Shown: positions 503 through 26,532, numbered from the stretch's first letter. The stretch: DNA of 59,916 nt from a virus (IMGVR_UViG_3300033067_000350:1-59916); one strand, 5' to 3'. Program-made: numbers and translations. The notes: generated by a model not told the origin, from the sequence alone.

Positions 503-951
503 ACAACAACCTGTCCCGCAAGGCCGCCCAACTCATTCAATTGCCATGGCTGAACCCATACTGAGAGTCTCTTGCTGTCCCTGAGCACGATGGTAGCCAT
601 ATTCAGCAACGACATCAACACTTCGGACCTATTGTGCACCCGGCTCCATTGTTCTGCTGTAATGTACCCCAGTGCTGTTCCCCTCTCATCCTCAGCCTGT
701 ACGCACCCACTCACCCATCTGAGCACCAGTGCTGGAGTACCTCTAGCCAGCAAGTCACATATGACCAGTTTCTGAATATTGCTGGTCTCGTCATTGACTT
801 TCAATTCGATATGTCCGGTCCACTTCTTGCCATATACCTGCAGGTCTGGCCACCCGCTCTTCTGCATAGCGTGGCCGTGCACCTTGAACGCAACTCCGCC
901 AGACCCTTCGATAGCTGTCACGATTTGCTTACCAAAATCGCTCTCAAGCAT
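493..951 (-). CDS. VRR-NUC / Holliday-junction-resolvase-like PD-(D/E)XK nuclease
   Basis: ESDF...GGVAFKVHG...GWPDL...HIELK motifs. Start moved to MLESDF. Confidence 0.75.
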   Translation of the reverse strand: MLESDFGKQIVTAIEGSGGVAFKVHGHAMQKSGWPDLQVYGKKWTGHIELKVNDETSNIQKLVICDLLARGTPALVLRWVSGCVQAEDERGTALGYITAEQWSRVHNRSEVLMSLLNMATIVLRDSKRLSVWVQPWQLNELGGLAGQVVVVR

Positions 952-1762
952 GTAACACCTGCTTGTACTGGGCATAACTTACGCCCTGCAAAACAATGAT
1001 CACGTCATCCTCCCACATATCTTGTAGCTCTTCAGCTTTAGCCATGCGAGCTTCAACGCTACTAAACTCTGATCCCATCACAGTGATGATTGGTGTAATG
1101 CCCCACGCTAACACATCATCAATGCTATCCCTGGTCTTTGCTTCCCAATTCTTTACTGACCCGCAAATGTAACCAGGCTCTAGCACAGTAAACGGGTTAG
1201 CAACCCGTCTTGCTGGGTTTGGTTCAAATCCCCACTTAATACCAACACCCAGCCCGTTAGCGCACTCAATACATCTAATCAGTGCTGTCATCCCTGCCAC
1301 TTCTGTACTCTCTGAGTCTCCAATACCATCCCAAATCAGAGTGCTGTTAGGCAGCTTTTCTCGCAGCATCTTAGTATGACCCATCATCTCCATCAGAACA
1401 CCCATTGGGTCCTTCTCATCCCTAGCAACCTTGGCCGGCCCACCAGTATACAAAAATGCCTGGACAACTCCTGGGCTCTCAAGGAACCTAGTCAGACCCA
1501 TTACAACTTCTATTGGGGCCCCATCAATATAGTGCGGAGTGAGGGGCACATTATCCAACACAATCCTGTTAACATCTCTACCAAACGGGCTGGCCAGCCA
1601 GAAGCTGCCGTACCCGTCATCAAGTTGTTCCTGCAGCTCTTTACACAACCAGTTGAAGGTATCTTCTCTGTACCCCTTCACAAAGTGGCCATACCCAGGG
1701 TTTATGTGCTTGCCGGCATCATTCTTAGACGTGTCAGCACAACTGATTCCTCTGATGATCAT
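944..1762 (-). CDS. Hypothetical protein
   Basis: 272-aa ORF abutting neighbours; no recognised motif. Confidence 0.7.
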   Translation of the reverse strand: MIIRGISCADTSKNDAGKHINPGYGHFVKGYREDTFNWLCKELQEQLDDGYGSFWLASPFGRDVNRIVLDNVPLTPHYIDGAPIEVVMGLTRFLESPGVVQAFLYTGGPAKVARDEKDPMGVLMEMMGHTKMLREKLPNSTLIWDGIGDSESTEVAGMTALIRCIECANGLGVGIKWGFEPNPARRVANPFTVLEPGYICGSVKNWEAKTRDSIDDVLAWGITPIITVMGSEFSSVEARMAKAEELQDMWEDDVIIVLQGVSYAQYKQVLHA

Positions 1763-2539
1763 TCAATAATCCTCCTGAGGGAAACATGCCCCTCTAAATG
1801 CACATCCGCCGTAATTGGAGCACTCTTTCAGATTACACTCGACAGCGTCCTTATCAGTTACGCTCTTCAATTCAAGCATTTTGCCAGCAATATCCTTCAC
1901 TTTATCCCACTCTTGCTGGATACGATCACCCTCAACAGTGACTTCAACTTTGTGAACAGATGGTGGGTTCTTACATAAGATTTTGTGTTGTACCTTACAA
2001 CCCTTATCAAACCCGCTCATTTTGGCGTACACTAACAGCTGAGTGTTGTCCTTCAGAGTCTCTTCAGTCTCTGCCCACCTCATGCTGGACGTTGACTTGT
2101 AATCAACAACCACACCCCTATGATCTACAAAGTCAATGAACCCGACAATGCGAACATTCGGCACAACCTCTTTGTCAAATGCATATTCGACATCAAACTT
2201 ACCATCAACAGCAAACCACCCATCCTCTTGGGCCCGATGGACCAACATCTTGGCCAGAGCCTGTTCATTGTTGGTCAACCTGCCAGTCTCTTTGCCTGTA
2301 TATCTGTCAAAGGCATATTCCCACCCTGCTGGGAATATGTTCTTGCCTTGAACTGCTCTTTCCATACACGAGTGGATGACAGTGCCAAACGTGTTGGGAG
2401 TGCTGGAGGCACCCCTACGCATGACTCGCTCCCACCACCACTTGCGTGGGCAAGCCATATACGTCTCAATCTGTGTGACACTTATTTTTAACACGATCGA
2501 CCTCCAGCAAGTTATTGATCTTCTCAGAGCAATGGTCAC
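1763..2539 (-). CDS. Cas4/RecB-like PD-(D/E)XK exonuclease
   Basis: SVTQ..YMACPRKW, FGTVIH, GFID..VVDYKS, QLLVY and a C-terminal Cys cluster. True start probably near 2494. Confidence 0.85.
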   Translation of the reverse strand: MTIALRRSITCWRSIVLKISVTQIETYMACPRKWWWERVMRRGASSTPNTFGTVIHSCMERAVQGKNIFPAGWEYAFDRYTGKETGRLTNNEQALAKMLVHRAQEDGWFAVDGKFDVEYAFDKEVVPNVRIVGFIDFVDHRGVVVDYKSTSSMRWAETEETLKDNTQLLVYAKMSGFDKGCKVQHKILCKNPPSVHKVEVTVEGDRIQQEWDKVKDIAGKMLELKSVTDKDAVECNLKECSNYGGCAFRGACFPQEDY

Positions 2540-2669
2540 AAATACAAGTATAATTACATCTGATGCTACTCCATATCTCTACAAATCTGTCACCCTCATC
2601 CATCTCTTTGCCGCAACAAGAGCAATACGGCCTGACGCCATCAATGTCACCCAATACAAACTTAGTCAT
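2466..2669 (-). CDS. Small Zn-ribbon protein
   Basis: CSCC...CDHC. Confidence 0.6.
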   Translation of the reverse strand: MTKFVLGDIDGVRPYCSCCGKEMDEGDRFVEIWSSIRCNYTCICDHCSEKINNLLEVDRVKNKCHTD

Positions 2670-2677
2670 GGGGCACC

Positions 2678-3301
2678 TCAATGTAAGCACATAACGCATT
2701 TACATCCATCTGGGTGGGGCTCAACTCTTGGCCGATTAAAATTGTCCAGCCACCGCCTAACAATCTGTACACAATCCATAGCATCTTCAATAGCAGTATG
2801 GCTCACACCTCCAATGATACCAGCACGCTTCTTACACTCTTCAAGGTCTGGAGGGCACTCATCAGTTGGCCTCAACATCAACGTACCCACATCAATAGCC
2901 CTGTGCTTGTGCTTAATTGCTGGGTAGCCCCAACCAGGCAGCCTGCGCAAGAATCTCATATCAAAACCCATGACATTCTTGCCACATGGTACAAACCCTT
3001 CTCTGCCATACATATGTGACTTGAGCCACCTGCTAATGGTGGGGACAATCGTATCTTCTGTAACAGACAGATACTCCCCAGACATGATTTTGTCCATTAT
3101 GCCCTGATTCATACGCATAGCAGTATCTTCGCCACAATACTGTTGCCCATCACGTGGCCTAATGTACCAGTGATTGACATCAACCTTTGGTGGGGTGTCA
3201 ATCTGCACCTCAGCATGAATCATAGCCAACTCTACCATCTGGCAGGTATTTGGATCCAATCCAGTTGTTTCACAATCAATAGCAATAAATCTCATGACCA
3301 T
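2678..3301 (-). CDS. DEDDh 3'-5' exonuclease (DnaQ/oligoribonuclease-like)
   Basis: IDCETTGLD, GKN..FD, IDV, HTAIED motifs. Confidence 0.9.
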   Translation of the reverse strand: MVMRFIAIDCETTGLDPNTCQMVELAMIHAEVQIDTPPKVDVNHWYIRPRDGQQYCGEDTAMRMNQGIMDKIMSGEYLSVTEDTIVPTISRWLKSHMYGREGFVPCGKNVMGFDMRFLRRLPGWGYPAIKHKHRAIDVGTLMLRPTDECPPDLEECKKRAGIIGGVSHTAIEDAMDCVQIVRRWLDNFNRPRVEPHPDGCKCVMCLH

Positions 3302-4245
3302 GTACCCCTTGAGCCATCGGTGTCCGCACCCAACTTGGTGAGTGCAAACATTGTACCTGCCTTAACAGTAACTGAGCCGCTCGCCGCAGTCTGATAGAAT
3401 CGCGGTATCAACGTACCTGCTGTACTGGTCTTAATAACCCCAACAACTTGGATACATGAACCAGCAGTTGTATTAGCAGCAGTAGCAGCCAAATGTGTTG
3501 TAGTTGTTCTAGCAGCATGATTGCTGGTAGTCTGAGACGAGTCCATAGCACCCTTGTGTCCTATGGTTCTGTAGTTGATTGCCGCAACGCCTACAGTGCC
3601 GCCAAATCCCACCCCTATGGCGTGAGATGTGGTGCCGTTAACCATATACAACTCACCTTCAAACCTGTATAGTGAGTTGGCCTCAAGGCTGACTCCGCCA
3701 GCAGTTGGGAACCATGGCTGGTCGTTGGTATCATTCACTCCGCTGGCGTCAGCATTAAGTCTCTTCCACAATTCAGGAGGGGCATAACCCCAGGACTGGT
3801 CACCCTTTAGCACAGTCAGAGCGGATGCTGACCCGCTGCCTAGTCTTGCTGTAGCTATAGTGCCTGAGGTGATTTCAGACGCAGCATGATTATGAGAAGC
3901 AGCAGCAAAATCCCCAGTGTTAGATAGGGATGCTGAACCAAGACCCAGAGTTGTCCTCTGCGCAGCCGCATCGGCATCATCAAGCAGTGCCTTACCAGCC
4001 GTTGTAACATCACCACCCATCTTCGCAGTACTAACCACGCCATTGTCAATAGTATAAACGCTGCCACTGCCGCTGATAGTGATGTCACCTTTGTCCCCAT
4101 CTGCCGGTCCTGTTGACGCAATAGTAGCCCATTTACCATCTTTTCTGAGATATTGGTTACCATGAGTTGCGTTGAATATCATGGTGGTGCCGTCAGGCAT
4201 AATCAACCCGTATTCACCATTCGACTCAAATGATCCGATGGCCAC
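3292..4245 (-). CDS. Tail-fibre-like protein outside the structural module
   Basis: Gly/Ser/Thr/Ala-rich; GDKGDIT, LLDDADAAAQRTTLGLG and HNH fibre-type motifs. Confidence 0.65.
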   Translation of the reverse strand: MAIGSFESNGEYGLIMPDGTTMIFNATHGNQYLRKDGKWATIASTGPADGDKGDITISGSGSVYTIDNGVVSTAKMGGDVTTAGKALLDDADAAAQRTTLGLGSASLSNTGDFAAASHNHAASEITSGTIATARLGSGSASALTVLKGDQSWGYAPPELWKRLNADASGVNDTNDQPWFPTAGGVSLEANSLYRFEGELYMVNGTTSHAIGVGFGGTVGVAAINYRTIGHKGAMDSSQTTSNHAARTTTTHLAATAANTTAGSCIQVVGVIKTSTAGTLIPRFYQTAASGSVTVKAGTMFALTKLGADTDGSRGTWS

Positions 4246-4248
4246 TAC

Positions 4249-4488
4249 TCACCTCACGATCATAGAGAATAGGAACAACATCGCAAACACAAAAACAATG
4301 ATTATCTGAGCATACCTCAGCTTGTCCATAGCTATCTCTGTTTTGGCCTCAAGAATAAGCAGTTTGGCATCAGGATGTTGCATGGCCAGATCGTAGTTTA
4401 TCCAGTCATCAGCACTACCATATAGTGCCATCCTCTCAGGGGAGTTGAGGTACACTTTGATCCAGAATTTGGCCTCTGACTCGTTCAT
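4249..4488 (-). CDS. Small membrane protein
   Basis: C-terminal hydrophobic helix; ATGA overlap with the upstream gene. Confidence 0.6.
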   Translation of the reverse strand: MNESEAKFWIKVYLNSPERMALYGSADDWINYDLAMQHPDAKLLILEAKTEIAMDKLRYAQIIIVFVFAMLFLFSMIVR

Positions 4489-4964
4489 TGTCTGCCCTCG
4501 TTGACTATCCAACCTGCCCACAACATTGTGCCGTAATCCCAGATGCCTTTACTTGTCCATTTGTATAACAAGTAGTTTGCTCTATTGGGATGCATACCTA
4601 TTTCATTGATCATATCCTGAATGCGTCTGAAGTTGTAGCGGTCTGTACCACCAGTCCTATGTTGTTTACACAATCTGAGAAATTCACGTTCATCCCATCT
4701 GATGGCTCCATGCAAGTTAGTATCTCTGTATTGGAATTTGAAAGCCAACAATCCTGCTGTAGTCACAAGTTGCACTACACATCCTAATCCCTCATCCGAT
4801 ATCAGAGTACCTTCAACCCACGTGTATTGTTGATTGAGCCAACCTTTTCTTTTGGGTACTGCTGATTTAGCTACTGGGATGTGCGGACTCAGTATCTTAT
4901 GAGGGGACACTATGGGGTAGTATGGGTGATTATCAGACAATTTCATTAGCACTCTGACCTTCAT
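4485..4964 (-). CDS. Hypothetical protein
   Basis: 4-bp overlaps with both neighbours. Confidence 0.65.
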   Translation of the reverse strand: MKVRVLMKLSDNHPYYPIVSPHKILSPHIPVAKSAVPKRKGWLNQQYTWVEGTLISDEGLGCVVQLVTTAGLLAFKFQYRDTNLHGAIRWDEREFLRLCKQHRTGGTDRYNFRRIQDMINEIGMHPNRANYLLYKWTSKGIWDYGTMLWAGWIVNEGRQ

Positions 4965-5326
4965 ACCATCTTCTCCACAGCCTCAATGGCTTCGTCCAAA
5001 TCTCTGCTGTTCCTCAGAATATGGAGCACTTTGTCTTTGAGCTTGAGGTTGGATTTACCAATAGGGTTTTGTTTACGCTGAGCCCCGAACGATGTTACCA
5101 CTTTGGGTTTGTTAAACGATTTTAACAACAAATCCCTGGCAGCAGTCAACCTTTTGAACAGACCTGGGTCCCCTCCCTGATCTGGGTGACACCTAGTCTC
5201 CATCACTCTTCTGTGATATGCTTTACGCACATCATCTGGTGTGATCTTGCCTTGCAGCTTCATTGCTGTCATAGCTTTGTCTAGATCAACGTCCACAACC
5301 CCTAACAGCCATTCGTCATCTGTCAT
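4961..5326 (-). CDS. J-domain (DnaJ-like) co-chaperone
   Basis: VRKAYHRR...HPDQGGD...F..L..ARD.L; HPD motif intact. Confidence 0.85.
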   Translation of the reverse strand: MTDDEWLLGVVDVDLDKAMTAMKLQGKITPDDVRKAYHRRVMETRCHPDQGGDPGLFKRLTAARDLLLKSFNKPKVVTSFGAQRKQNPIGKSNLKLKDKVLHILRNSRDLDEAIEAVEKMV

Positions 5327-5652
5327 GGGCGTAATTCCTTAAAAGCTATGCCTGAGGCATTAAGACCCATTGCAGCCAATCTCATGGCTTGTTTAACATC
5401 CTTGGCTTGGACTTGTATTTCTACAGTCATTTCCCCAATGGGACCTTCTACAACAGCTTGAAGGGTATGCATCGGCATACCTTTGAACAGTTTTTCAATT
5501 CTGGCGTACATCTCTGCGTTCAGAGCCTCAAAGTCAACAATGGTGACTACTGATTCAGCTTTAGCCAACCAGTTCTCAAACGGCTCACCAGCATCCTCTA
5601 TGAAGTCATCAAGATTGGAGGCATTGTCAATCAATTTGGCTTTGATAGACAT
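5323..5652 (-). CDS. Hypothetical protein
   Basis: GAGGAG ribosome-binding site; overlaps neighbours. Confidence 0.65.
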   Translation of the reverse strand: MSIKAKLIDNASNLDDFIEDAGEPFENWLAKAESVVTIVDFEALNAEMYARIEKLFKGMPMHTLQAVVEGPIGEMTVEIQVQAKDVKQAMRLAAMGLNASGIAFKELRP

Positions 5653-6217
5653 TTGATTTCAACTCCTCATGGGCCCTAGCCATTTCAGCTGCTGGGATGA
5701 ACAACTTATCCCACCCACTACCTCCGGCACAAGCAAGCCACCCATCTCTACTGGTTCTGTAAATGAAGTCTTTAGTGATCCAAACAGACTCATGCCCTGT
5801 AACTCCACCCTTTACAATTGTGAAGGATTTGAGCGGCCCATGGATTTGAGATAGAAAATCGGTCAACATAACCCGAACAGCAACCTTTATTGGGTTGGCA
5901 AATTTGTTCTCAAATGTCTTACAATCCACAGTTGAGGTGCTGATGTTGCGGCTTCTCTCTGCTTCAATTACCAAACTTGGGGCTATGTATACTAATTTGT
6001 GACCCAAAGCAATCAGCCTAGTTGCTTCTGCCATGCTGCCCTTGAAAAGAGTATTTGAGATGGGCTTGCCTGTCACCCAATTTCTGTGAGTCTCAATAGT
6101 AGCCATCATGTGAGGGCTAGCCAGCACGCCGTCTGCTTCATGCCTTTTGATGGCTATAATGGCATCAATGGGGTCATCGTTGTCGTGGACGCAAATGATT
6201 TTCATTCTATCTTTCAT
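5627..6217 (-). CDS. Hypothetical protein, probably leaderless
   Basis: ATG lies 5 nt after a TATACT -10 box; no Shine-Dalgarno. Confidence 0.65.
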   Translation of the reverse strand: MKDRMKIICVHDNDDPIDAIIAIKRHEADGVLASPHMMATIETHRNWVTGKPISNTLFKGSMAEATRLIALGHKLVYIAPSLVIEAERSRNISTSTVDCKTFENKFANPIKVAVRVMLTDFLSQIHGPLKSFTIVKGGVTGHESVWITKDFIYRTSRDGWLACAGGSGWDKLFIPAAEMARAHEELKSNVYQSQID

Positions 6218-9205: not shown

Positions 9206-9490
9206 TCAATTGTATTGCATCCAAATCAAACCAGGCTGCCAACGCAGAGCTTTGAGATGGTGACTCTTGTATCTCTTGATGAATGCCCTCTCTTTGTAAT
9301 TGGGCTTACAACACTGGACTACAAACTCAAGTCTGCGTTTATTAGGCAACCCTGTACGCTTGTACTTGACTCTGGTAACCCTGACTACAACGTCTTTGCT
9401 GATGAATTTAGTAGCCCTGTGCAGGTATTTGAGGTTACTGAACTCACCAATCAGTTCCGTCACCGCATTTGAAAAATCAATAGTCGTCAA
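9206..9490 (-). CDS. Basic hypothetical protein
   Basis: TTG start after AGGTG; in operon. Confidence 0.55.
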   Translation of the reverse strand: MTTIDFSNAVTELIGEFSNLKYLHRATKFISKDVVVRVTRVKYKRTGLPNKRRLEFVVQCCKPNYKERAFIKRYKSHHLKALRWQPGLIWMQYN

Positions 9491-9494
9491 TTTG

Positions 9495-10448
9495 TCACCT
9501 TATAACTATGTCGCCATAGTCCCTATAAATCTTCAACCTGGGTTTGTCGTGATGGCTCCAACCATGCAACTCCCCCATATATTCATTCGGGAACACATCC
9601 TTGCGAGCACCCAGTATCATGGCTCTAACAGTGTCATTCTTCTCCATAGCAACTTCCAACATCAAGTCAATATCGCACCCAAGATAGTAGTCACCTCTGT
9701 GTAGACTGTAGAAGCCACAACAACAAGTCTCCAGCAAGGCTAAATCCCTGTCGACAGGGACGTCATGATGTAGGCACTGTTCCATCAAATCTAATGAGGC
9801 CTCATCCAGAGTCTTGATTGCTGCCTCACTGTTGTCATCTTTGTCAGGCATCCCGCTGAATAGCAGGTTGAGTGCCTTGCGAGGGTTGCTGGAATTGGCA
9901 TGACCCATGTCTGGTGCCGTCAGGTTCAGTCCGCACACCTTCCCCAGCAATTCGCATCCCTTGTAGGCTGCCCACCTGCCATTGTTCCAAACCTCTTGAA
10001 TAGTATGGCCGGCGCATTGCCAATTGAATTGACTGGTGCTGATTACTGCCCCGCCTCTTTCAAGAGTGCCAGGCTTTTGGAATCTCTGCTCAGCCCACCT
10101 AACCCATCCACCTGCTTTACGCACTTGCTCACACTGGCTGTCCCAATGTTTGCGAATGTTCGACCCTCCCCTCAAACCTCTGCGTTCCAATTTAATTGGG
10201 TACAAGGCTTGCTCAGCAGAGATGTCAGAACACTTGCAGTTGTTGTCCAGATAGGCTTGTAGTGCTGACCTCAGATTGTACCAGCACATATACCAGAAGC
10301 AAAACTCAATGCGCTGCTCTGTATCCATTTGGAATGAGTTACAGATATTGCGTAGCACTGGGTACATTGGATCAGCATCGTTGATCTCAATGTATACCTT
10401 GCTGAAAGCCATGAAATCGGACCAGAGTTGGTGTGGCTGTTTGTTCAT
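9495..10448 (-). CDS. Amino acid:DNA transferase (aGPT-Pplase2 / AADT family)
   Basis: DADPMY, ERRGLR, HhH-like GRWAAYK..ELL, ETCCC, YYLG.DID. Adjacent to a P-loop kinase. Confidence 0.8.
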   Translation of the reverse strand: MNKQPHQLWSDFMAFSKVYIEINDADPMYPVLRNICNSFQMDTEQRIEFCFWYMCWYNLRSALQAYLDNNCKCSDISAEQALYPIKLERRGLRGGSNIRKHWDSQCEQVRKAGGWVRWAEQRFQKPGTLERGGAVISTSQFNWQCAGHTIQEVWNNGRWAAYKGCELLGKVCGLNLTAPDMGHANSSNPRKALNLLFSGMPDKDDNSEAAIKTLDEASLDLMEQCLHHDVPVDRDLALLETCCCGFYSLHRGDYYLGCDIDLMLEVAMEKNDTVRAMILGARKDVFPNEYMGELHGWSHHDKPRLKIYRDYGDIVIR

Positions 10449-11008
10449 AGTCCGGCATTCTCTTTTGCTTGATTAACCACAGCATTTACGATTGTGTCTC
10501 TATCAAAATTGGCCACGTTCCTGCCTGCGTCAATCAATCTCTTCTTCAGCCTTAGAATGGCCTCATGGCGTGGAATGAGAGTTTGATTGGGGTCAAAAGG
10601 CTTGCTGTTGTTCTTGGCTTTGCGTCTCTCCAGCACACTAGCAATGCAATCCGCAACTGGAGTCTCAAGGAACCAGAACCAGTAGTCATCATCCAACTCT
10701 CTGGCCAGGGCCTCCCATCTAGCGTAGACAGAAGCGACAATGGACCCTTCTACAATCACAGTTTTGTATTTTGGGTACAATGCTCTAATGGCTTCAGTGA
10801 TAGCATCTTGTTTGGTGATACCATCAGCACCTCCGCATTGAGTATCATAGTGCCCGATGATTGCTGTTTGTAAATCTGGCACTACGGTGAATGGCACGTC
10901 TTCAATTGTGGATTGAAGAGTCCATTGCTCATTGCCATACAACTTCAACATTTGATGGATGGGGTATGACTTGCCCGACCCATTTGTACCGCGAATATCA
11001 AGGATCAC
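10445..11008 (-). CDS. P-loop kinase (5-hmdU DNA kinase P-loop subunit-like)
   Basis: IRGTNGSGKS, IGHY..CGGADGI, VEG, C...V..RR. Confidence 0.8.
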   Translation of the reverse strand: MILDIRGTNGSGKSYPIHQMLKLYGNEQWTLQSTIEDVPFTVVPDLQTAIIGHYDTQCGGADGITKQDAITEAIRALYPKYKTVIVEGSIVASVYARWEALARELDDDYWFWFLETPVADCIASVLERRKAKNNSKPFDPNQTLIPRHEAILRLKKRLIDAGRNVANFDRDTIVNAVVNQAKENAGL

Positions 11009-11232
11009 TTGTCACCCCACGATCTGTGTAAAGTCATTGAAATTAGAGACGCAAACAACCATTGGTCCCCATTCTTCATATGTTTGGCCACTATCAGTAT
11101 TGCTAGTGTGAGAACCACAATAACAAACATTTTGAATAGCCAACTGAGTAACTCATGTAACCACCGACGGTATGCCATTGTTGTACCTCTTATCACAACT
11201 TGGATCGTGAGTCTGTCCTGTTTTATGCCCAC
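11005..11232 (-). CDS. Small membrane protein
   Basis: Hydrophobic helices; true start may be internal. Confidence 0.5.
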   Translation of the reverse strand: MGIKQDRLTIQVVIRGTTMAYRRWLHELLSWLFKMFVIVVLTLAILIVAKHMKNGDQWLFASLISMTLHRSWGDK

Positions 11233-11371
11233 AAAATGAGCAGTATTTCACATGCCTATTGTCCCAGCACTCTTTATGGGCAAATTGTCCACCACGTTTC
11301 ATACTGCCATCCCCATTCCCTACTATTGTAGTTGAGGGCGCAATTACTTTACCACAAATGGAGCAAATCAT
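11153..11371 (-). CDS. Small Cys/His Zn-finger protein
   Basis: CSIC..HKEC..CSFC..H..C; GAGGT RBS. Confidence 0.6.
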   Translation of the reverse strand: MICSICGKVIAPSTTIVGNGDGSMKRGGQFAHKECWDNRHVKYCSFCGHKTGQTHDPSCDKRYNNGIPSVVT

Positions 11372-11375
11372 TACC

Positions 11376-12440
11376 TCACTCCGGCATGGACTTCAAAATG
11401 TCATTCAACTCAGCCACTTGACTGTCATTCAACAGTCCTTTATGCTTGTTGATAAATGCCCGCAGTCTTTGTGATGGGGTACCCACACTAGGGATGAAGA
11501 ATCCTACAGCACGCCAGAGGATAGATTTGAGGCCATCTGGCACCAGTTGAAACTTCTTACCAGCTGCCATAGCCTGTGAGATTTCAGATTGAGTGCTGAC
11601 AGGGATGGCATCGCCGAATGACTTAGTATATGCAGATACAAGTCTGGTTTCAACAGCACTAGACTTGGGCACATGATAGTTGACATACTCAACATCCTTG
11701 GCCTTGTCATTGATCAGCTCAAGCAGTACGTCATCCCCAAATTCGGCATCATCGTGAGGGATGCTAGTCCAGATACGGCTGGTCTCATAAGCCAGATTGA
11801 ACCCATCAATCATACCCCTGTCCCGGTCCAATTTCACTCTGTCTGGACTGAAATTGTACCCATACTTGAACCCCTCAGCTTTGCAAACAAACAAACCTTG
11901 TATGTACATCATACCAGGCTTGTCTTTGATAGGCTTGTTTACAGGCAGATTGGGATCAAAATTGCCTTCAATAGCCTTTGTAGTAGCATTCTCAATGCAA
12001 AACTCCACCCCATCTTGTGATACAATACCGTTATCAAACTCTCTGTCTGAGATGTCTATGGTCAACACTTCAGAATCAAACTCTTCTGAGTACCTCAGGG
12101 CTGGTACCCATAGCTCACTCCCTGTGTAGATTTTAACAGCGTGCCCCAATCTGCACAAAACCAGCAAAGCCAGTTTGAATCCCTCGCCAAACTGACCAAT
12201 TTGGGTATCATCGCCTTGCTTAGTAGTTTGACCCAGTAGCAGCATCGATCTGCTAAGTGCTGGCCCGCCATTGTTGATTCTAAGTGCTGGAGTGACCCCA
12301 TGTACGTTGTAATCGTACACTTCCATGAAGTGACCCTTAGACTTAGCATCTAAGGCATTTTGAAGCAACTCTCTGAGGGCTTCCCAGAGTCCCCAGTGCT
12401 TTACGTAGTTAGTGGTCATTGACAATTGAATCGTCTTCAT
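11376..12440 (-). CDS. GHKL (Hsp90/MutL-type) ATPase domain protein
   Basis: ALRELLQNALDA, NNG, IGQFGEGFKLA, GVEF boxes. Confidence 0.85.
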   Translation of the reverse strand: MKTIQLSMTTNYVKHWGLWEALRELLQNALDAKSKGHFMEVYDYNVHGVTPALRINNGGPALSRSMLLLGQTTKQGDDTQIGQFGEGFKLALLVLCRLGHAVKIYTGSELWVPALRYSEEFDSEVLTIDISDREFDNGIVSQDGVEFCIENATTKAIEGNFDPNLPVNKPIKDKPGMMYIQGLFVCKAEGFKYGYNFSPDRVKLDRDRGMIDGFNLAYETSRIWTSIPHDDAEFGDDVLLELINDKAKDVEYVNYHVPKSSAVETRLVSAYTKSFGDAIPVSTQSEISQAMAAGKKFQLVPDGLKSILWRAVGFFIPSVGTPSQRLRAFINKHKGLLNDSQVAELNDILKSMPE

Positions 12441-12805
12441 GTTAATCCTCCCCAAACACTTAACGAGTCACCAACCGTTTGATGCCCAAAGAATTTGTAC
12501 ACCCGTTGTTTCAGACCCAGTCTCAGCAACATTTCACAAGCCAAAGCAAAACAACCTTCTGTGGTTTTGGGCTTTACTATGGTTTTGCCCTTTTGAGGTT
12601 GTAGTACAATATACAACATCAGTCTATCAGTACACAAGACATCGACATCTTGAACTTTGGCGATTGTGAGTCTATACCCATCCAAAGTATCAAATATGTT
12701 GACCCTGTTAGCTAGTCTACCCAATTCTGATACTGTGTAGGTCTTGGATATGGCTAGATGGGCCCTAGACTTCAACACGTTGTCTTCTTCAGGGTAGTAA
12801 CTCAT
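12437..12805 (-). CDS. Hypothetical protein
   Basis: ATGA overlaps on both sides. Confidence 0.6.
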   Translation of the reverse strand: MSYYPEEDNVLKSRAHLAISKTYTVSELGRLANRVNIFDTLDGYRLTIAKVQDVDVLCTDRLMLYIVLQPQKGKTIVKPKTTEGCFALACEMLLRLGLKQRVYKFFGHQTVGDSLSVWGGLT

Positions 12806-13734
12806 TTGATGTACTTTGATCTGGGTCTGCCCTGACCCAGTCTGGCCCTCTCATACTTGTCAAATTCACAGAGGGAATGTTCAATCTCTCTGATTTCAAA
12901 CGGCGGCCACTGATGCTCTCTGGGTGTGTCAGGATATACTGTAGCTCCATCAAAAGCAACAGGGTAGTGTCTCAACACCTCAGATTCTAGGCTACTCAGT
13001 ACCTCAGGTGCTTTGAGCCAGAGCCACTCCATAGATTCATAGGATTCTTCCAACCCTAGTCTACGCAGTCCTCTTTCAGCACCGTTGCCGGGGTTACCCC
13101 ACGTGAGCTTATCGGGTGCCTCCGTCAGCAAATTCCACCTTAAATCGCTGGTAATTTCATAGGATGTGAAATCACCGATCAGTGGAGTCAGCAACAACAC
13201 ATTAAAAGCATTCTGCAGAGTCTTGCCGTCAATGATCTGTTTAGCAATGTTGTCCTGTGAGTTCCATACTTCTTTGAGCATTCTCAAATAGGTGGACACC
13301 TTGGTCTCTTTGGGTGCACCTCTCACCATGTGTGCTGAGGTCCACATTCTGCCGCCTTCAGCATGCAGCTTCAGCATGTATTCTTCTAATTGCTCAAAGG
13401 CAGTCACAAAACCAAGTGCTGAAGCATGAGGCTCATAATTCCAAATGCGATACCACCACGTGTTAAACACTATCAATCCAGCCAATTCAGGCCAATGGCC
13501 AGTCAGATAGTTGTACACATACTGCTTCTCCATCTTTCTGAGAGCAATTGTGCCTGGATCCAACTCTCTAAATACGTTTGTGAATTTGTACGTATTCATG
13601 ATTGGGTCATCAGTCCATGGCCTAGGCACATTGCGGCTTCTCTTCAGATAGATAGAGTGACGCTCATCCATCCATTCAAAGAATCCTTGAATAGTTGAGC
13701 TTGCTGGAATGAAGTCTTCACGTAATTCTTTCAT
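12802..13734 (-). CDS. 5-hmdU DNA kinase helical subunit (aGPT-Pplase1 family)
   Basis: ERH.IY..R..PWTDDPI...YKFTNVFRELD, G.F.SYE..SD, GA.RGL, EHSLCEFDKY.R. Confidence 0.88.
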   Translation of the reverse strand: MKELREDFIPASSTIQGFFEWMDERHSIYLKRSRNVPRPWTDDPIMNTYKFTNVFRELDPGTIALRKMEKQYVYNYLTGHWPELAGLIVFNTWWYRIWNYEPHASALGFVTAFEQLEEYMLKLHAEGGRMWTSAHMVRGAPKETKVSTYLRMLKEVWNSQDNIAKQIIDGKTLQNAFNVLLLTPLIGDFTSYEITSDLRWNLLTEAPDKLTWGNPGNGAERGLRRLGLEESYESMEWLWLKAPEVLSSLESEVLRHYPVAFDGATVYPDTPREHQWPPFEIREIEHSLCEFDKYERARLGQGRPRSKYIK

Positions 13735-13901
13735 GACTCCCTCACGATTGTGCCGTTAGCACTCCAGAAAATGGCCTCACCCATGGCTTGATTAATGTCG
13801 ATCGGCTTACCAGCACAATAGGTGAGGGTCTGTACAAACAGTCTGTTGTATGATTCTTCCAGCAACTCCATCTTACTCACTTCTGCTTTTTCGTCTACCA
13901 T
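13731..13901 (-). CDS. Hypothetical 56-aa protein
   Basis: Below the ORF-track cutoff. MVDEKAEVSK...IVRES, overlapping both neighbours. Confidence 0.55.
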   Translation of the reverse strand: MVDEKAEVSKMELLEESYNRLFVQTLTYCAGKPIDINQAMGEAIFWSANGTIVRES

Positions 13902-14512
13902 AGGATGATACCCTTATCAAAATCTTCATATGATGCCCCAGACTTATACTCAGAGATCATCTCATCATCGATGATCACTCTACAATCTGGCAGTACCTCA
14001 GCAATCTCTTTGGGATTGAACCTTGTGAAGACTGGGCCTGGTGCTGAATCCTTAGCCTCTGTGTACATAAAATAACCAACACCATGAGTACACATGTATC
14101 TCATGGTGGTTACCAATTTCAAACAATCCATCTTGTGGTTGCCTTGTGTGTAGGCTAGTGGCCCAAGTATGAACCCGTAGTCAAACTGAGGTTCATCTCT
14201 AAACAGCGGCAGACAATCTTCTGCCACGTGGAAGTTACCACCCTGCCACTTCTGCTTACAAACCTCAATAGCCTCACTGGAACAATCGAATCCAGTATAG
14301 TCAAAGGATTTGTAACCACAAGTCTTGAGGTTGTAAATCAAATCGCCTTTGCCACATCCTGCATCCAGTATTCTGACCCGTTGCTTGGGCATATTGAGGT
14401 GGCGGATGCATATTTGATGGATGCGATCTGCCTTCTTGGCAGACCACATATCAATGACCCTGTTTGGGTCTTTTGAGACAAATCCGTTGATGCGTTTGGC
14501 AATGTGATTCAT
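13895..14512 (-). CDS. Class I SAM-dependent methyltransferase
   Basis: ILDAGCGKG, YTGFDCS, FDY motifs. No DPPY/NPPY/PCQ DNA-methylase motif. Confidence 0.88.
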   Translation of the reverse strand: MNHIAKRINGFVSKDPNRVIDMWSAKKADRIHQICIRHLNMPKQRVRILDAGCGKGDLIYNLKTCGYKSFDYTGFDCSSEAIEVCKQKWQGGNFHVAEDCLPLFRDEPQFDYGFILGPLAYTQGNHKMDCLKLVTTMRYMCTHGVGYFMYTEAKDSAPGPVFTRFNPKEIAEVLPDCRVIIDDEMISEYKSGASYEDFDKGIILW

Positions 14513-14515
14513 AAA

Positions 14516-14588
14516 TGGGCCTTATTGGATTTGAACCAATGACCTGCCGATTATGAGCCGGATGCTCTCACCGCTGAGCTAAAGGCCC
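14516..14588 (-). tRNA. tRNA with CAT anticodon (Ile2 or Met)
   Basis: GGGCCTT/AAGGCCC acceptor, CT-CAT-AA loop, GGTTCAAATCC. CCA not encoded. Confidence 0.9.
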
Positions 14589-14603
14589 ATGCTATTGTCT
14601 ATA

Positions 14604-14676
14604 CAGGATCAGCTGGACTTGAACCAGCAACCTGCGGCTTAGAAGGCCGCTGCTCTGTCCATTGAGCTATGATCCC
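14604..14676 (-). tRNA. tRNA-Arg(TCT)
   Basis: GCGGC-CT-TCT-AA-GCCGC arm; full cloverleaf. Confidence 0.93.
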
Positions 14677-14678
14677 AT

Positions 14679-14757
14679 TGGGAGGCAGATACTGCAACGT
14701 CCCAATTTGCTGAGCGATAATAGGCAGAGTTCACCTTTCGGTTTATCTGCCTCACCA
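14679..14757 (-). ncRNA. Unrecognised structured RNA
   Basis: GAGGCAGATA/TATCTGCCTC closing stem with an internal ACC-GAAA-GGT hairpin. Confidence 0.5.
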
Positions 14758-14760
14758 GGT

Positions 14761-14875
14761 TGTCTCCTGGAGTGTACTCAGTTGCCCGCGGCAGGTCTTT
14801 GAAACCATCATGCCCTGTTTATGTCTTCATTTCCTAAGACGGGCGGCAACCATCGATGCAATGCTTCTCGGACAA
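14761..14875 (-). ncRNA. Unrecognised structured RNA
   Basis: Nested TTGTC/GACAA, GTTGCC/GGCAAC, GCCC/GGGC and GTCTT/AAGAC stems. Confidence 0.45.
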
Positions 14876-15235
14876 TGGAGCCGTGGGGAATCGAACCCCA
14901 GTCTCACAATCCAACTCAAGGTGCGTCTACGGGTGTATCCTGTGATTGTTTCTCGCCAGGTGCTCAGCCACAAGCAGCTGCTGCCTAGCCAACCCAGATA
15001 TCCTCTCATCCTGTCGTCGTCCAGATTGCCCCGACAGAACCAGCCGATGTCAATCCACAGCATATCGGCGTCAGCTGTGGGTCTACTCAGGCCGCCATCC
15101 GCATGGGCTGGGCGTTCTGAGTTGGGAAACTGAAGTTGCCAGTTACGGCTGATGGCCCATTTATTGAGTGTAGCCATCATTACTCAACCCGCTGCTTGCC
15201 TCCATTTGAATGTGATCGAATACCATGTCGGCCCC
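14876..15235 (-). ncRNA. ssrA: tmRNA
   Basis: 360 nt. GGGGCCG/CGGCTCCA acceptor with the G3.U alanine wobble; T arm GGGGTTCGATTCCCC; TAACT resume signal then tag GNFSFPTQNAQPMRMAA* (15140-15087). Confidence 0.95.
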
Positions 15236-15240
15236 GAAAC

Positions 15241-15476
15241 AGGTGCACTGAATGCTTCCATCCAGCACACCCTAGCGCACAGACACCTGAGGGGTCCAGC
15301 CACCGATCTAGCAGCCTCGCCTCCACCTAAGTTTGGTGGTCGTGGGTAATGAGCCCACTACAACAGTCACACGCCAGGCTCCATTGGGCTTTCGCCCCAA
15401 ATCCCCTATTGCACCTCTGCATTTTGTCCATTGGCCGGTAAGCCAACAAGAGGATGACTACTCAGCAACAGCAGAG
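15241..15476 (-). ncRNA. Unrecognised multi-branched RNA
   Basis: AGGTGCA/TGCACCT, AGGGG/CCCCT, AGCCT/AGGCT and CTCTGC/GCAGAG stems plus several short hairpins; no minus-strand ORF in the track. Confidence 0.5.
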
Positions 15477-15498
15477 TCTAGAATGCTATTGGTTCATA

Positions 15499-15552
15499 GC
15501 CTGTGACACGGCATACAGCCGTGTTTCGGCCTAGTGGCCTCATCAGACAGGC
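15499..15552 (-). ncRNA. Hammerhead ribozyme (type I)
   Basis: GCCUGU-CUGAUGA-GGCC(ACUA)GGCC-GAAA-CACGGC(UGUAU)GCCGUG-UC-ACAGGC: complete core, three perfect stems, GUC cleavage triplet. Confidence 0.95.
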
Positions 15553-15554
15553 GA

Positions 15555-15587
15555 TCACTTCTTCTTGCCTTTACACTTTTTACCCAT
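15555..15587 (-). CDS. Lysine-rich micropeptide MGKKCKGKKK
   Basis: AAGGAG RBS 6 nt upstream; stop codon abuts the hammerhead. Confidence 0.4.
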   Translation of the reverse strand: MGKKCKGKKK

Positions 15588-15607
15588 GATGGGCTCCTTA
15601 TGTTAAA

Positions 15608-15681
15608 TCAGGGTAGCAGGATTTGAACCTGCGGCCTTCTGGACCCAAACCAGACGCTCTACCAAGCTGAGCTACACCCTG
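15608..15681 (-). tRNA. tRNA-Pro(TGG)
   Basis: CAGGGTG/TACCCTG acceptor; TCTGG-TT-TGG-GT-CCAGA arm. Confidence 0.93.
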
Positions 15682-26026: not shown

Positions 26027-26532
26027 GGTTGCTCCTGTTCCAAATTGCGGTGCCAATTCTTTGCCGACCTGCCCAAACTTATTGCCCTAGCAATATTGGG
26101 CGGTCTGTAATTTAGCCCCTTGTTCTTCATTCTGGGGTCTGCCTTAGACCTCACTGATTTGGACATATTACTGGCGTGGACTTCTTCATCAACATACTCG
26201 CTGGGTATGCCGTATGTAACGTCAGTACCAGTTACTACATATCTCAAATCAGCAGTACCGTCAGCAAGAGCAATCTCATCTCTAACAGCTAGGGCATGAA
26301 TAACCTCACTCAACTCTTCAACCATCAGGTGGGTTCTGTAAAGCCGTTCATCACCATGATGCTGCGAGTTTAATCCAGGTTGTTTGCATTTTTCAGCAAT
26401 TTCTGCTAGGTGCTTACAAATGTCCAATAGAATGCTGGTGTCGTCAAGCACTCTATTGGACCTTAAATCCATATTGCATGGGAACCCATGCTTCTTATGG
26501 AATGATTCCACATCAGTATTCATCGTCCGCAT
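26023..26532 (-). CDS. MazG-like all-alpha NTP pyrophosphohydrolase
   Basis: V..FH, EELSE, ADG.ADLRYV, EVH.SNMSK, K...Y.PP. Confidence 0.85.
   Translation of the reverse strand: MRTMNTDVESFHKKHGFPCNMDLRSNRVLDDTSILLDICKHLAEIAEKCKQPGLNSQHHGDERLYRTHLMVEELSEVIHALAVRDEIALADGTADLRYVVTGTDVTYGIPSEYVDEEVHASNMSKSVRSKADPRMKNKGLNYRPPNIARAISLGRSAKNWHRNLEQEQP

Follow-up and report, generated by a model that had tools for sequence, protein, structure and literature searches.

The virus record IMGVR_UViG_3300033067_000350 (1-59916) is the genome of an uncultured tailed phage, deposited in IMG/VR with an estimated completeness of 91%; we analysed the whole record of 59,916 bp, which we call the window. Between positions 9495 and 14512 it codes for a P-loop kinase, an amino-acid:DNA transferase (AADT) and a helical protein of the Pfam family HMUDK_hel. 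Judged from their sequences, these three form a real base-hypermodification cassette that would work like the pathways of phages PaMx11, M6 and ViI, with the kinase acting first and the AADT second. The same run of genes opens with a class I S-adenosylmethionine (SAM)-dependent methyltransferase (MTase) from a rare family. The single best reading of the locus, which we put forward tentatively, is that the cassette attaches an amino acid to a DNA base and that this MTase serves as the tailoring enzyme of the adduct. The features are collected in Table 1.

Kinase, transferase and helical protein

A sequence-only reading of the window had placed an MTase, an HMUDK_hel protein, a kinase and an AADT in this region, and all four open reading frames (ORFs) were recovered on the minus strand. 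Profile searches upheld the family assignments of HMUDK_hel, the AADT and the class I MTase, whereas the kinase stays 0.8 bits under the HMUDK_HMUD1 cut-off of 27 bits, a shortfall that has to be held against the favoured pathway. Its assignment is nevertheless backed by a match to phrog_800 (1.7e-18), by a Walker A motif (GTNGSGKS, residues 7-14) and by 33% identity to PaMx11 gp49, which Table 1 of PMC8989533 lists as a 5-hydroxymethyldeoxyuridine (5-hmdU) DNA kinase. The counterpart in the metagenomic locus L007, 47% identical to the window kinase, itself scores 44 bits. The sequence-only reading had described the kinase step as a pyrophosphorylation; PMC8989533 gives a monophosphate as the product of this family instead.

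In the AADT, E240, T241 and C244 correspond to the catalytic residues E243, T244 and C247 of PaMx11 gp46, and D26, W159 and K163 to its glycine contacts D24, W146 and K150; all of these positions are invariant in an alignment of six sequences. The gp46 residues are those named in PMC11472151, which also describes the Glu-Thr metal site as binding thymine O4 and reports that PhiW-14, whose enzyme uses putrescine, has a Tyr in place of W146. A Cys and a nearby Glu are likewise essential in M6 gp51 and ViI gp247 (PMC8989533). Since the Glu-Thr metal site is kept in the window AADT, a uracil-type base is favoured as its substrate.

Close homologues of the AADT, with 62-76% identity, occur on six other contigs, and this conservation argues for purifying selection on the protein. 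Searches of IMG/VR with the single protein and of JGI metagenome contigs with alignment A8 found no close relatives, and the nearest cultured AADTs, at 33-35% identity, belong to Gordonia, Rhodococcus, Mycobacterium and Microbacterium phages. Among the 80 nearest AADT loci in IMG/VR, the recurrent neighbours are TET/JBP (56 loci), ParB (54), a P-loop kinase (51) and an oxidoreductase resembling the flavin adenine dinucleotide (FAD) enzyme PaMx11 gp47 (40), with GNAT present in seven. The substrate of gp47-type enzymes is the glycine adduct, according to PMC8989533 and PMC11472151, and the AADT family also takes in diamine transferases (PMC13458397). The conserved D26, W159 and K163 suggest a glycine-like amino acid and not a diamine. 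Because the glycine contacts are conserved and gp47-like genes stand beside many AADTs, our best guess for the added residue is glycine, which would give a base of the N-alpha-glycinyl-thymidine (N-alpha-GlyT) type.

The helical protein matches PF18723 far above its cut-off of 25 bits, a family with no match in any of 14 control genomes; it is 32% identical to PaMx11 gp50 and has 846 homologues at E<=1e-20. The label 'HMUDK helical subunit' is Pfam naming for the proteins that papers call an aGPT-Pplase clade. M6 gp55, which was left out of an in-vitro mix that proved sufficient (PMC8989533), appears to belong to the same family. The window protein is probably an accessory of the cassette. In the 80 related HMUDK_hel loci that we collected (L006-L085), the gene usually adjoins a homologue of thymidylate synthase (TS). 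With the DNA and sensitivity used, an AADT went undetected in 68 of these loci and a kinase in 62.

The sequence-only reading had assigned the four genes to one transcription unit. Because the genes share a strand and their starts and stops overlap (4-7 nt each) in two runs, MTase, orf56, HMUDK_hel, orf122 and a GHKL ATPase in the one and orf75, kinase and AADT in the other, a single operon that begins with the MTase and takes in the AADT is plausible. Its contents had been given incompletely, the GHKL ATPase and five small ORFs having been missed. A scan for promoters and terminators returned fewer sites than in shuffled sequence and was uninformative.

A rare methyltransferase as candidate tailoring enzyme

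To our knowledge, the described AADT pathways all finish their adduct by decarboxylation, isomerisation, oxidative cleavage or acetylation. In the window, six-frame searches for Radical_SAM, DAO, Acetyltransf_1 and PALP gave no match, and all 14 control genomes matched. A Pfam scan of 40 ORFs, which did not take in the structural half of the window ORF by ORF, likewise returned no known tailoring enzyme; the families of pyridoxal phosphate (PLP) decarboxylases of fold types I and III were not searched separately. These results bear out the sequence-only reading, which had seen none of the PLP, radical-SAM, flavin and acetyltransferase enzymes, and by gene content the cassette would correspond to none of the known tailored pathways (M6, ViI, PaMx11 and SP10 types). 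Our literature search found no description of a methylation step or of a methylated AADT product, although supplementary files, which lay outside the search, might list such clusters.

The MTase itself is a well-formed member of its fold. It matches the generic class I SAM families Methyltransf_31 (34 bits) and Methyltransf_25 (32.8 bits), and an LDAGCGKG motif and D76 are invariant in its family. The AF2 model (pLDDT 89.8) alternates strand and helix, and Foldseek aligns it with probability 1.0 to many class I MTases, the top matches having TM scores of 0.55-0.65. Among these neighbours are the small-molecule and peptide N- and O-MTases cg3271, BpumL/BamL, DhpI, ChlM, DesVI and TehB, together with the RNA MTases METTL6 and METTL5. 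As to its substrate, a PDB sequence search, a protein atlas and the fold search returned generic class I MTases only. Features of DNA amino- or C5-MTases were not found: motif IV, (D/N/S)PP(Y/F/W), and the Pro-Cys motif are both absent from the 205-aa sequence, Pfam gave no N6_N4_Mtase or DNA_methylase match, and no DNA MTase stands among the fold matches listed.

The family is small. Four homologues with 45-54% identity were found among 5.8 billion clustered proteins, and a profile search of 1.84 billion representatives gave five sequences at E<1e-30, beyond which the scores fall sharply to those of generic MTases. No relative was found in cultured phages by tblastn or in JGI metagenome contigs. 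In IMG/VR, searches with the single protein and with two alignments found none, and the subfamily alignment A5 gave one relative, in locus L086. The gene resembles its neighbours in GC and GC3, and the idea that it is compositionally foreign was rejected for want of any such signal.

Several observations tie the MTase to the cassette. It is translationally coupled to orf56 and HMUDK_hel through overlapping starts and stops. Its homologues P0003 and P0004 (50% identity) have longest listed contigs of 16757 and 15358 bp. P0010 (56%) and P0008 (59%), which are the closest homologues of HMUDK_hel, are listed with these two lengths as well, and the AADT homologue P0283 (62%) with 16757 bp. The remaining MTase homologues lie on contigs of 1.0-6.6 kb, and for a 10785-bp contig homologues of HMUDK_hel and AADT are listed and none of the MTase. 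Going by the equal contig sizes, MTase and cassette may co-occur in close relatives.

The genomic setting is also suggestive. In syntenic relatives, the stretch between ligase and ribonucleotide reductase appears from gene content to be a variable tailoring island. In L007 it holds HMUDK_hel, a 78-aa ORF, kinase, AADT, PALP and radical SAM; in L006 it holds a radical-SAM/SPASM gene, HMUDK_hel and a gene resembling TET-associated glycosyltransferases (TAGT), possibly a sugar-based variant. The L006 genes (949-5977, plus strand) include the closest HMUDK_hel in IMG/VR, at 51% identity, and neither kinase nor AADT was detected there. L012 and L013 share a 378-aa ORF in which a kinase (HMUDK_HMUD1, 27.4 bits) and an MTase domain of class I (sub-threshold, E 3e-05) are fused. 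This fusion gene (L013:15710-16846, plus strand, and the same gene in L012) lies just upstream of the ribonucleotide reductase gene. Beside it are two radical-SAM genes, one B12-binding and one of the SPASM type, and a 190-aa ORF with a weak likeness to MTases; no AADT was detected with it. In L033 a 268-aa MTase abuts HMUDK_hel, and in L026 the order is MTase, HD, kinase, MT-A70, HMUDK_hel and TS.

Other observations weigh against a tailoring role, and we list them together. The MTases of L013, L026 and L033 were considered as orthologues and rejected, their hhalign matches (probability 59-80%) extending over the SAM motif only. Two screens found a class I MTase in five of the 80 HMUDK_hel loci (L012, L013, L026, L033 and L044, from four lineages), which is not clearly above the background in phage DNA, and in none of the 80 AADT loci. 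Common descent may account for the equal contig sizes. The only PHROG match of the MTase is 'tRNA methyltransferase' (9.6e-06), and METTL6 and METTL5 are among its fold neighbours. A family member with 37% identity, P0129, has a 93%-identical copy in L086 (4470-5129, plus strand), flanked by a portal gene of the T4 type and by a gp32-like gene; this T4-like viral fragment of 6 kb holds no hypermodification gene and no tRNA. Cassettes free of tailoring genes are present in cultured Gordonia and Rhodococcus phages, and the missing tailoring genes alone therefore do not make the MTase the tailoring step.

A block of RNA genes adds to these points. It lies directly upstream of the MTase, with 2 nt between the end of tRNA-Met and the ATG of the MTase. 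The block includes a tmRNA (transfer-messenger RNA; 14873-15235, minus strand) for which ARAGORN gives a tag of 23 residues ending in MAA; the tRNAs of the window are at 14515-14589, 14603-14677, 15608-15681 and 23942-24024. At the site upstream of the MTase, all 14 related loci compared are free of tRNAs, which makes the segment of SLT, RNA genes, MTase and orf56 an insertion by comparison. MTase and RNA genes could have come in together. Among 84 loci, tblastn found no match to orf56.

These points make it quite possible, if in our view less probable than a tailoring role, that the cassette is genuine and the MTase a separate enzyme with an RNA, protein or small-molecule substrate, so that the virion base would be the untailored adduct, for example N-alpha-GlyT, the base also inferred for the minimal systems of Gordonia and Rhodococcus phages. 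The RNA block and its absence from the 14 relatives, the PHROG and fold matches to RNA MTases, the L086 relative away from hypermodification genes, the empty count among AADT loci and the minimal untailored cassettes of cultured phages (PMC11955845) all speak for this explanation. It has to contend with the translational coupling of the MTase to orf56 and HMUDK_hel, with the matching contig sizes of the homologues, and with related phages that have a kinase-MTase fusion or MTases beside HMUDK_hel. Two of its own supports are also weakened: L086 too is free of tRNAs, so that members of the family do not always accompany tRNA genes, and the PHROG match spans only the generic SAM-binding region.

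The sequence-only reading had proposed a methylated amino-acid or amine adduct, perhaps an undescribed base, and had itself rested the role of the MTase on adjacency. The cassette proved genuine and the MTase coupled to it, but the link between the two is still contextual only, untailored cassettes exist, and the MTase adjoins equally the tRNA/tmRNA block, which that reading had not seen.

Precursor base and proposed pathway

The 5-hydroxymethyl pyrimidine is presumably supplied by the TS homologue of the window. Among solved structures its best relative is the CMP hydroxymethylase MilA (4.7e-25, compared with 3.8e-15 for a true TS). At the position of Asn177 in E. coli TS it has an Asp, in the motif LGLPHD after Arg-Ser-x-Asp; this residue aligns to the Asn of PFN in the Enterococcus and Babesia TS, to that of GAN in PaMx11 gp51 and to the Asp of MilA. 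The Asn177 position sets specificity, and an Asn-to-Asp change turns TS from dUMP to dCMP (PMC8670742). The homologue lacks the Asn of a uracil-type dUMP hydroxymethylase, which counts against a simple 5-hmdU route, and the 5-hmdU precursor assumed by the sequence-only reading has become doubtful. It is the one TS homologue found in the window, where neither ThyX nor TET/JBP was found; phage TET/JBP-type enzymes are described as T-dioxygenases in PMC13229309.

The Asp is common to 13 HMUDK_hel loci (L008-L013, L016, L018, L040 and the full records of L006, L007, L014 and L017), and 50 others, PaMx11 gp51 included, have Asn instead. No cultured member was found of this Asp-type lineage, listed as L008-L013, L016, L018, L040 and L203-L206. 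In the Asp lineage the TS homologue is accompanied by a MazG-like protein, a P-loop protein and a dCMP deaminase, whereas in the Asn-type L026, L033 and PaMx11 it is accompanied by an HD nucleotidase. T4 Cd accepts 5-hydroxymethyl-dCMP (hmdCMP). Either of two routes would fit this gene set: hmdCMP is deaminated to hmdUMP, or 5-hydroxymethylcytosine (5-hmC) enters DNA and is itself the substrate of the cassette.

The second route, with the Asp-type enzyme making hmdCMP, the MazG-like protein acting as a dCTPase as in T4, and kinase, AADT and perhaps MTase decorating 5-hmC, is unlikely, and it overlaps both with a tailoring role of the MTase and with a separate one. Beyond the MilA-like Asp and the known effect of the Asn-to-Asp switch, it draws on the occurrence of Asp in L007 next to kinase, AADT, PALP and radical SAM, on the lack of any second source of hydroxymethyl bases among the families named above, and on the T4-like combination of MazG, P-loop protein and deaminase in place of the HD nucleotidase. 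The AADT, however, retains the Glu-Thr metal site for thymine O4, and the N4 amino group of cytosine would not coordinate the cation; its nearest relatives stand beside TET/JBP; the adjacent dCMP deaminase could convert hmdCMP to hmdUMP; and a single residue is no proof of specificity. We regard as more doubtful still the full proposal that the Asp-type lineage as a whole uses 5-hmC, that its kinases and AADTs add an amino acid to the C5-methyl of cytosine, and that here the MTase methylates the adduct.

For the reading we prefer, with the MTase as tailoring enzyme, the pathway would run in four steps. The TS-family hydroxymethylase, helped by the MazG-like, P-loop and dCMP deaminase proteins, would first put a 5-hydroxymethyl pyrimidine into DNA, most likely 5-hmdU reached by deamination of hmdCMP or through relaxed specificity. 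By homology to tested enzymes, the P-loop kinase would then phosphorylate the hydroxymethyl group, and the AADT would attack C6 with its Cys, expel the phosphate and add a free alpha-amino acid. Genomic context suggests the last step, in which the co-operonic MTase may methylate the appended residue, either at the secondary amine (a sarcosine-like adduct) or at the carboxylate (a methyl ester). A methyl ester would remove a negative charge, for which other phages use decarboxylation or oxidative cleavage.

That the cassette is decayed or incomplete, so that the DNA carries only a hydroxymethyl base, or that the MTase O-methylates the hydroxymethyl group directly, is very improbable: the sub-threshold kinase score, the GHKL gene and small ORFs inserted between HMUDK_hel and kinase (unlike PaMx11 and L007) and the many HMUDK_hel loci that show no AADT would fit it, but all ORFs are intact, the catalytic residues and Walker A motif are kept, and closely related AADTs persist on six other contigs.

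Base hypermodifications of phages block restriction enzymes and CRISPR nucleases and supply enzymes for the chemistry of DNA labelling and sequencing. If the MTase does act on the adduct, both the tailoring chemistry and the resulting DNA base would be new. The cytosine-type determinant would mean either that kinase/AADT cassettes work on 5-hmC or that hmdUMP is reached via hmdCMP, and both extend the known pathway. Should 5-hmC and a tailoring MTase prove true together, the phage would have a methylated, amino-acid-hypermodified cytosine, the first of its kind in DNA.

Neighbouring genes and known systems

The long ORFs of the window are nearly all on the minus strand and include DNA polymerase A (PolA), a primase-helicase, a SNF2 helicase, a ligase and a class II ribonucleotide reductase, besides the TS homologue, MazG-like pyrophosphatase and dCMP deaminase already discussed. 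A tRNA-Leu gene lies between the dCMP deaminase and PolA. The 169-aa protein encoded at 18698-19207 (minus strand) has a match to phrog_624, 'DNA binding protein' (4.8e-60), and in Pfam a weak one, below threshold, to pyrimidine-dimer DNA glycosylase.

Table 1. Features of the cassette region and of the nucleotide genes in the window, by position
Feature	Position	Strand	Evidence and remarks
94-aa ORF	9206..9490	-	Between AADT and class II ribonucleotide reductase; no Pfam/PHROG match
Amino-acid:DNA transferase (AADT, aGPT-Pplase2), 317 aa	9495..10448	-	PF18724 38.9 bits, cut-off 26.2
P-loop kinase, 187 aa, 5-HMUDK homologue	10445..11008	-	HMUDK_HMUD1 (PF18748) 26.2 bits; phrog_800
75-aa ORF (orf75)	11005..11232	-	Hydrophobic stretch; possible internal ATG start; DUF5592 match sub-threshold only
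72-aa ORF	11153..11371	-	Two CxxC pairs in translation, zinc-ribbon-like; no PHROG match
GHKL (HSP90/MORC-like) ATPase, 359 aa	11376..12455	-	phrog_6077 1.7e-76; weak HATPase_c_3 and Sacsin Pfam matches
122-aa ORF (orf122)	12437..12805	-	Overlaps neighbours; no Pfam/PHROG match
aGPT-Pplase1-type helical protein (Pfam HMUDK_hel), 310 aa	12802..13734	-	PF18723 150.9 bits
56-aa ORF (orf56)	13731..13901	-	Overlaps MTase and HMUDK_hel; no Pfam/PHROG match
Class I SAM MTase, 205 aa, rare family, candidate tailoring enzyme	13895..14512	-	Methyltransf_31/25/23; stop overlaps next ORF by 7 nt
tRNA-Pro, tmRNA, tRNA-Arg, tRNA-Met	14515..15681	-	ARAGORN; Rfam tmRNA 88.8 bits, tRNAs 67-72 bits
dCMP deaminase	24029-24472	-	dCMP_cyt_deam_1; PHROG dCMP deaminase
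P-loop protein	24456-25037	-	Weak P-loop Pfam match
TS-family pyrimidine hydroxymethylase homologue, 359 aa	24977..26056	-	PF00303 82.6 bits
MazG-like NTP pyrophosphatase	26023-26532	-	Pfam PRA-PH; PHROG nucleotide pyrophosphohydrolase; resembles DR2231

The GHKL ATPase, between HMUDK_hel and the kinase, aligns to the motifs of the HSP90 N-domain. In PaMx11 and Ab18-like phages its homologues lie some 14 kb away from the cassette. In all, 114 records have homologues, including Vibrio, Pectobacterium and Escherichia phages, many of them without HMUDK genes; none was found in the 80 related HMUDK_hel loci. On these grounds we rejected the protein as an overlooked tailoring enzyme, and it is probably a passenger outside the pathway. 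One record of the phrog_6077 family labels the homologue RIIA.

A megablast search with the 5-kb region gave no nucleotide-level match in cultured phages. Among the known systems close to the cassette is the 5-acetylaminomethyl-deoxyuridine (5-AcNmdU) pathway of Pseudomonas phage PaMx11, which, in PMC8989533 and PMC11472151, comprises the AADT/PUGT gp46, the flavin lyase gp47, the acetyltransferase gp48, the 5-HMUDK gp49, the helical protein gp50 and the dUMP hydroxymethylase gp51. Common to PaMx11 and the window are genes for kinase, AADT, helical paralogue and TS homologue, the Glu-Thr-x-x-Cys motif with its glycine contacts, and a GHKL homologue in the genome. The window differs in having a class I MTase in the operon instead of flavin lyase and acetyltransferase, an Asp instead of the Asn in the TS homologue and four genes inserted between the kinase and helical genes, and identities are at 21-33%. 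PhiJL001 was considered as a cultured relative and rejected: its annotation names a glucosyltransferase and an SPO1-like dUMP hydroxymethylase, and it groups with PaMx11 and not with this lineage. The PolA-UDG family of T-modified phages (PMC13697223) was set aside, as it concerns SP15-like phages and not this lineage.

The minimal cassettes of Gordonia, Rhodococcus and Mycobacterium phages (for example Wooper and Tonitrus; PMC11955845), with the order ParB, TET/JBP, AADT, kinase and helical protein, resemble the window in having no PLP, radical-SAM or acetyltransferase genes, and their AADTs are the closest cultured ones. They form 5-hydroxymethyluracil post-replicatively via TET/JBP and ParB and have no MTase, whereas the window has neither of these two and uses a TS-family enzyme.

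The nearest IMG/VR relative with the full set is L007, a metagenomic look-alike of the 5-(2-aminoethyl)-deoxyuridine (5-NedU) pathway of Pseudomonas phage M6. The two are 46% identical in HMUDK_hel and 40% in the AADT, beside the value given above for the kinase, and both have an Asp-type TS homologue. Downstream of the ligase, L007 runs from HMUDK_hel through a small ORF to kinase and AADT, followed by PALP and radical SAM; the window has neither of these and an MTase upstream instead. The Asp at the position of pyrimidine specificity is also that of T4 dCMP hydroxymethylase and MilA. The known hmC phages glycosylate the base, and none is known in which hmC occurs together with a base kinase and AADT; our literature search listed no paper on one.

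A chemical parallel to the proposed last step comes from the wobble uridine of tRNA, where MnmC methylates 5-aminomethyluridine (nm5U) to 5-methylaminomethyluridine (mnm5U) and Trm9/Trm112 methyl-esterify 5-carboxymethyluridine (cm5U) to 5-methoxycarbonylmethyluridine (mcm5U). No homology specific to MnmC or Trm9 was detected in the window MTase, which would act on DNA. The likeness is that in tRNA, too, a class I SAM MTase finishes an aminomethyl or carboxymethyl chain on uracil C5, and N-alpha-GlyT would be the DNA counterpart of 5-carboxymethylaminomethyluridine (cmnm5U).

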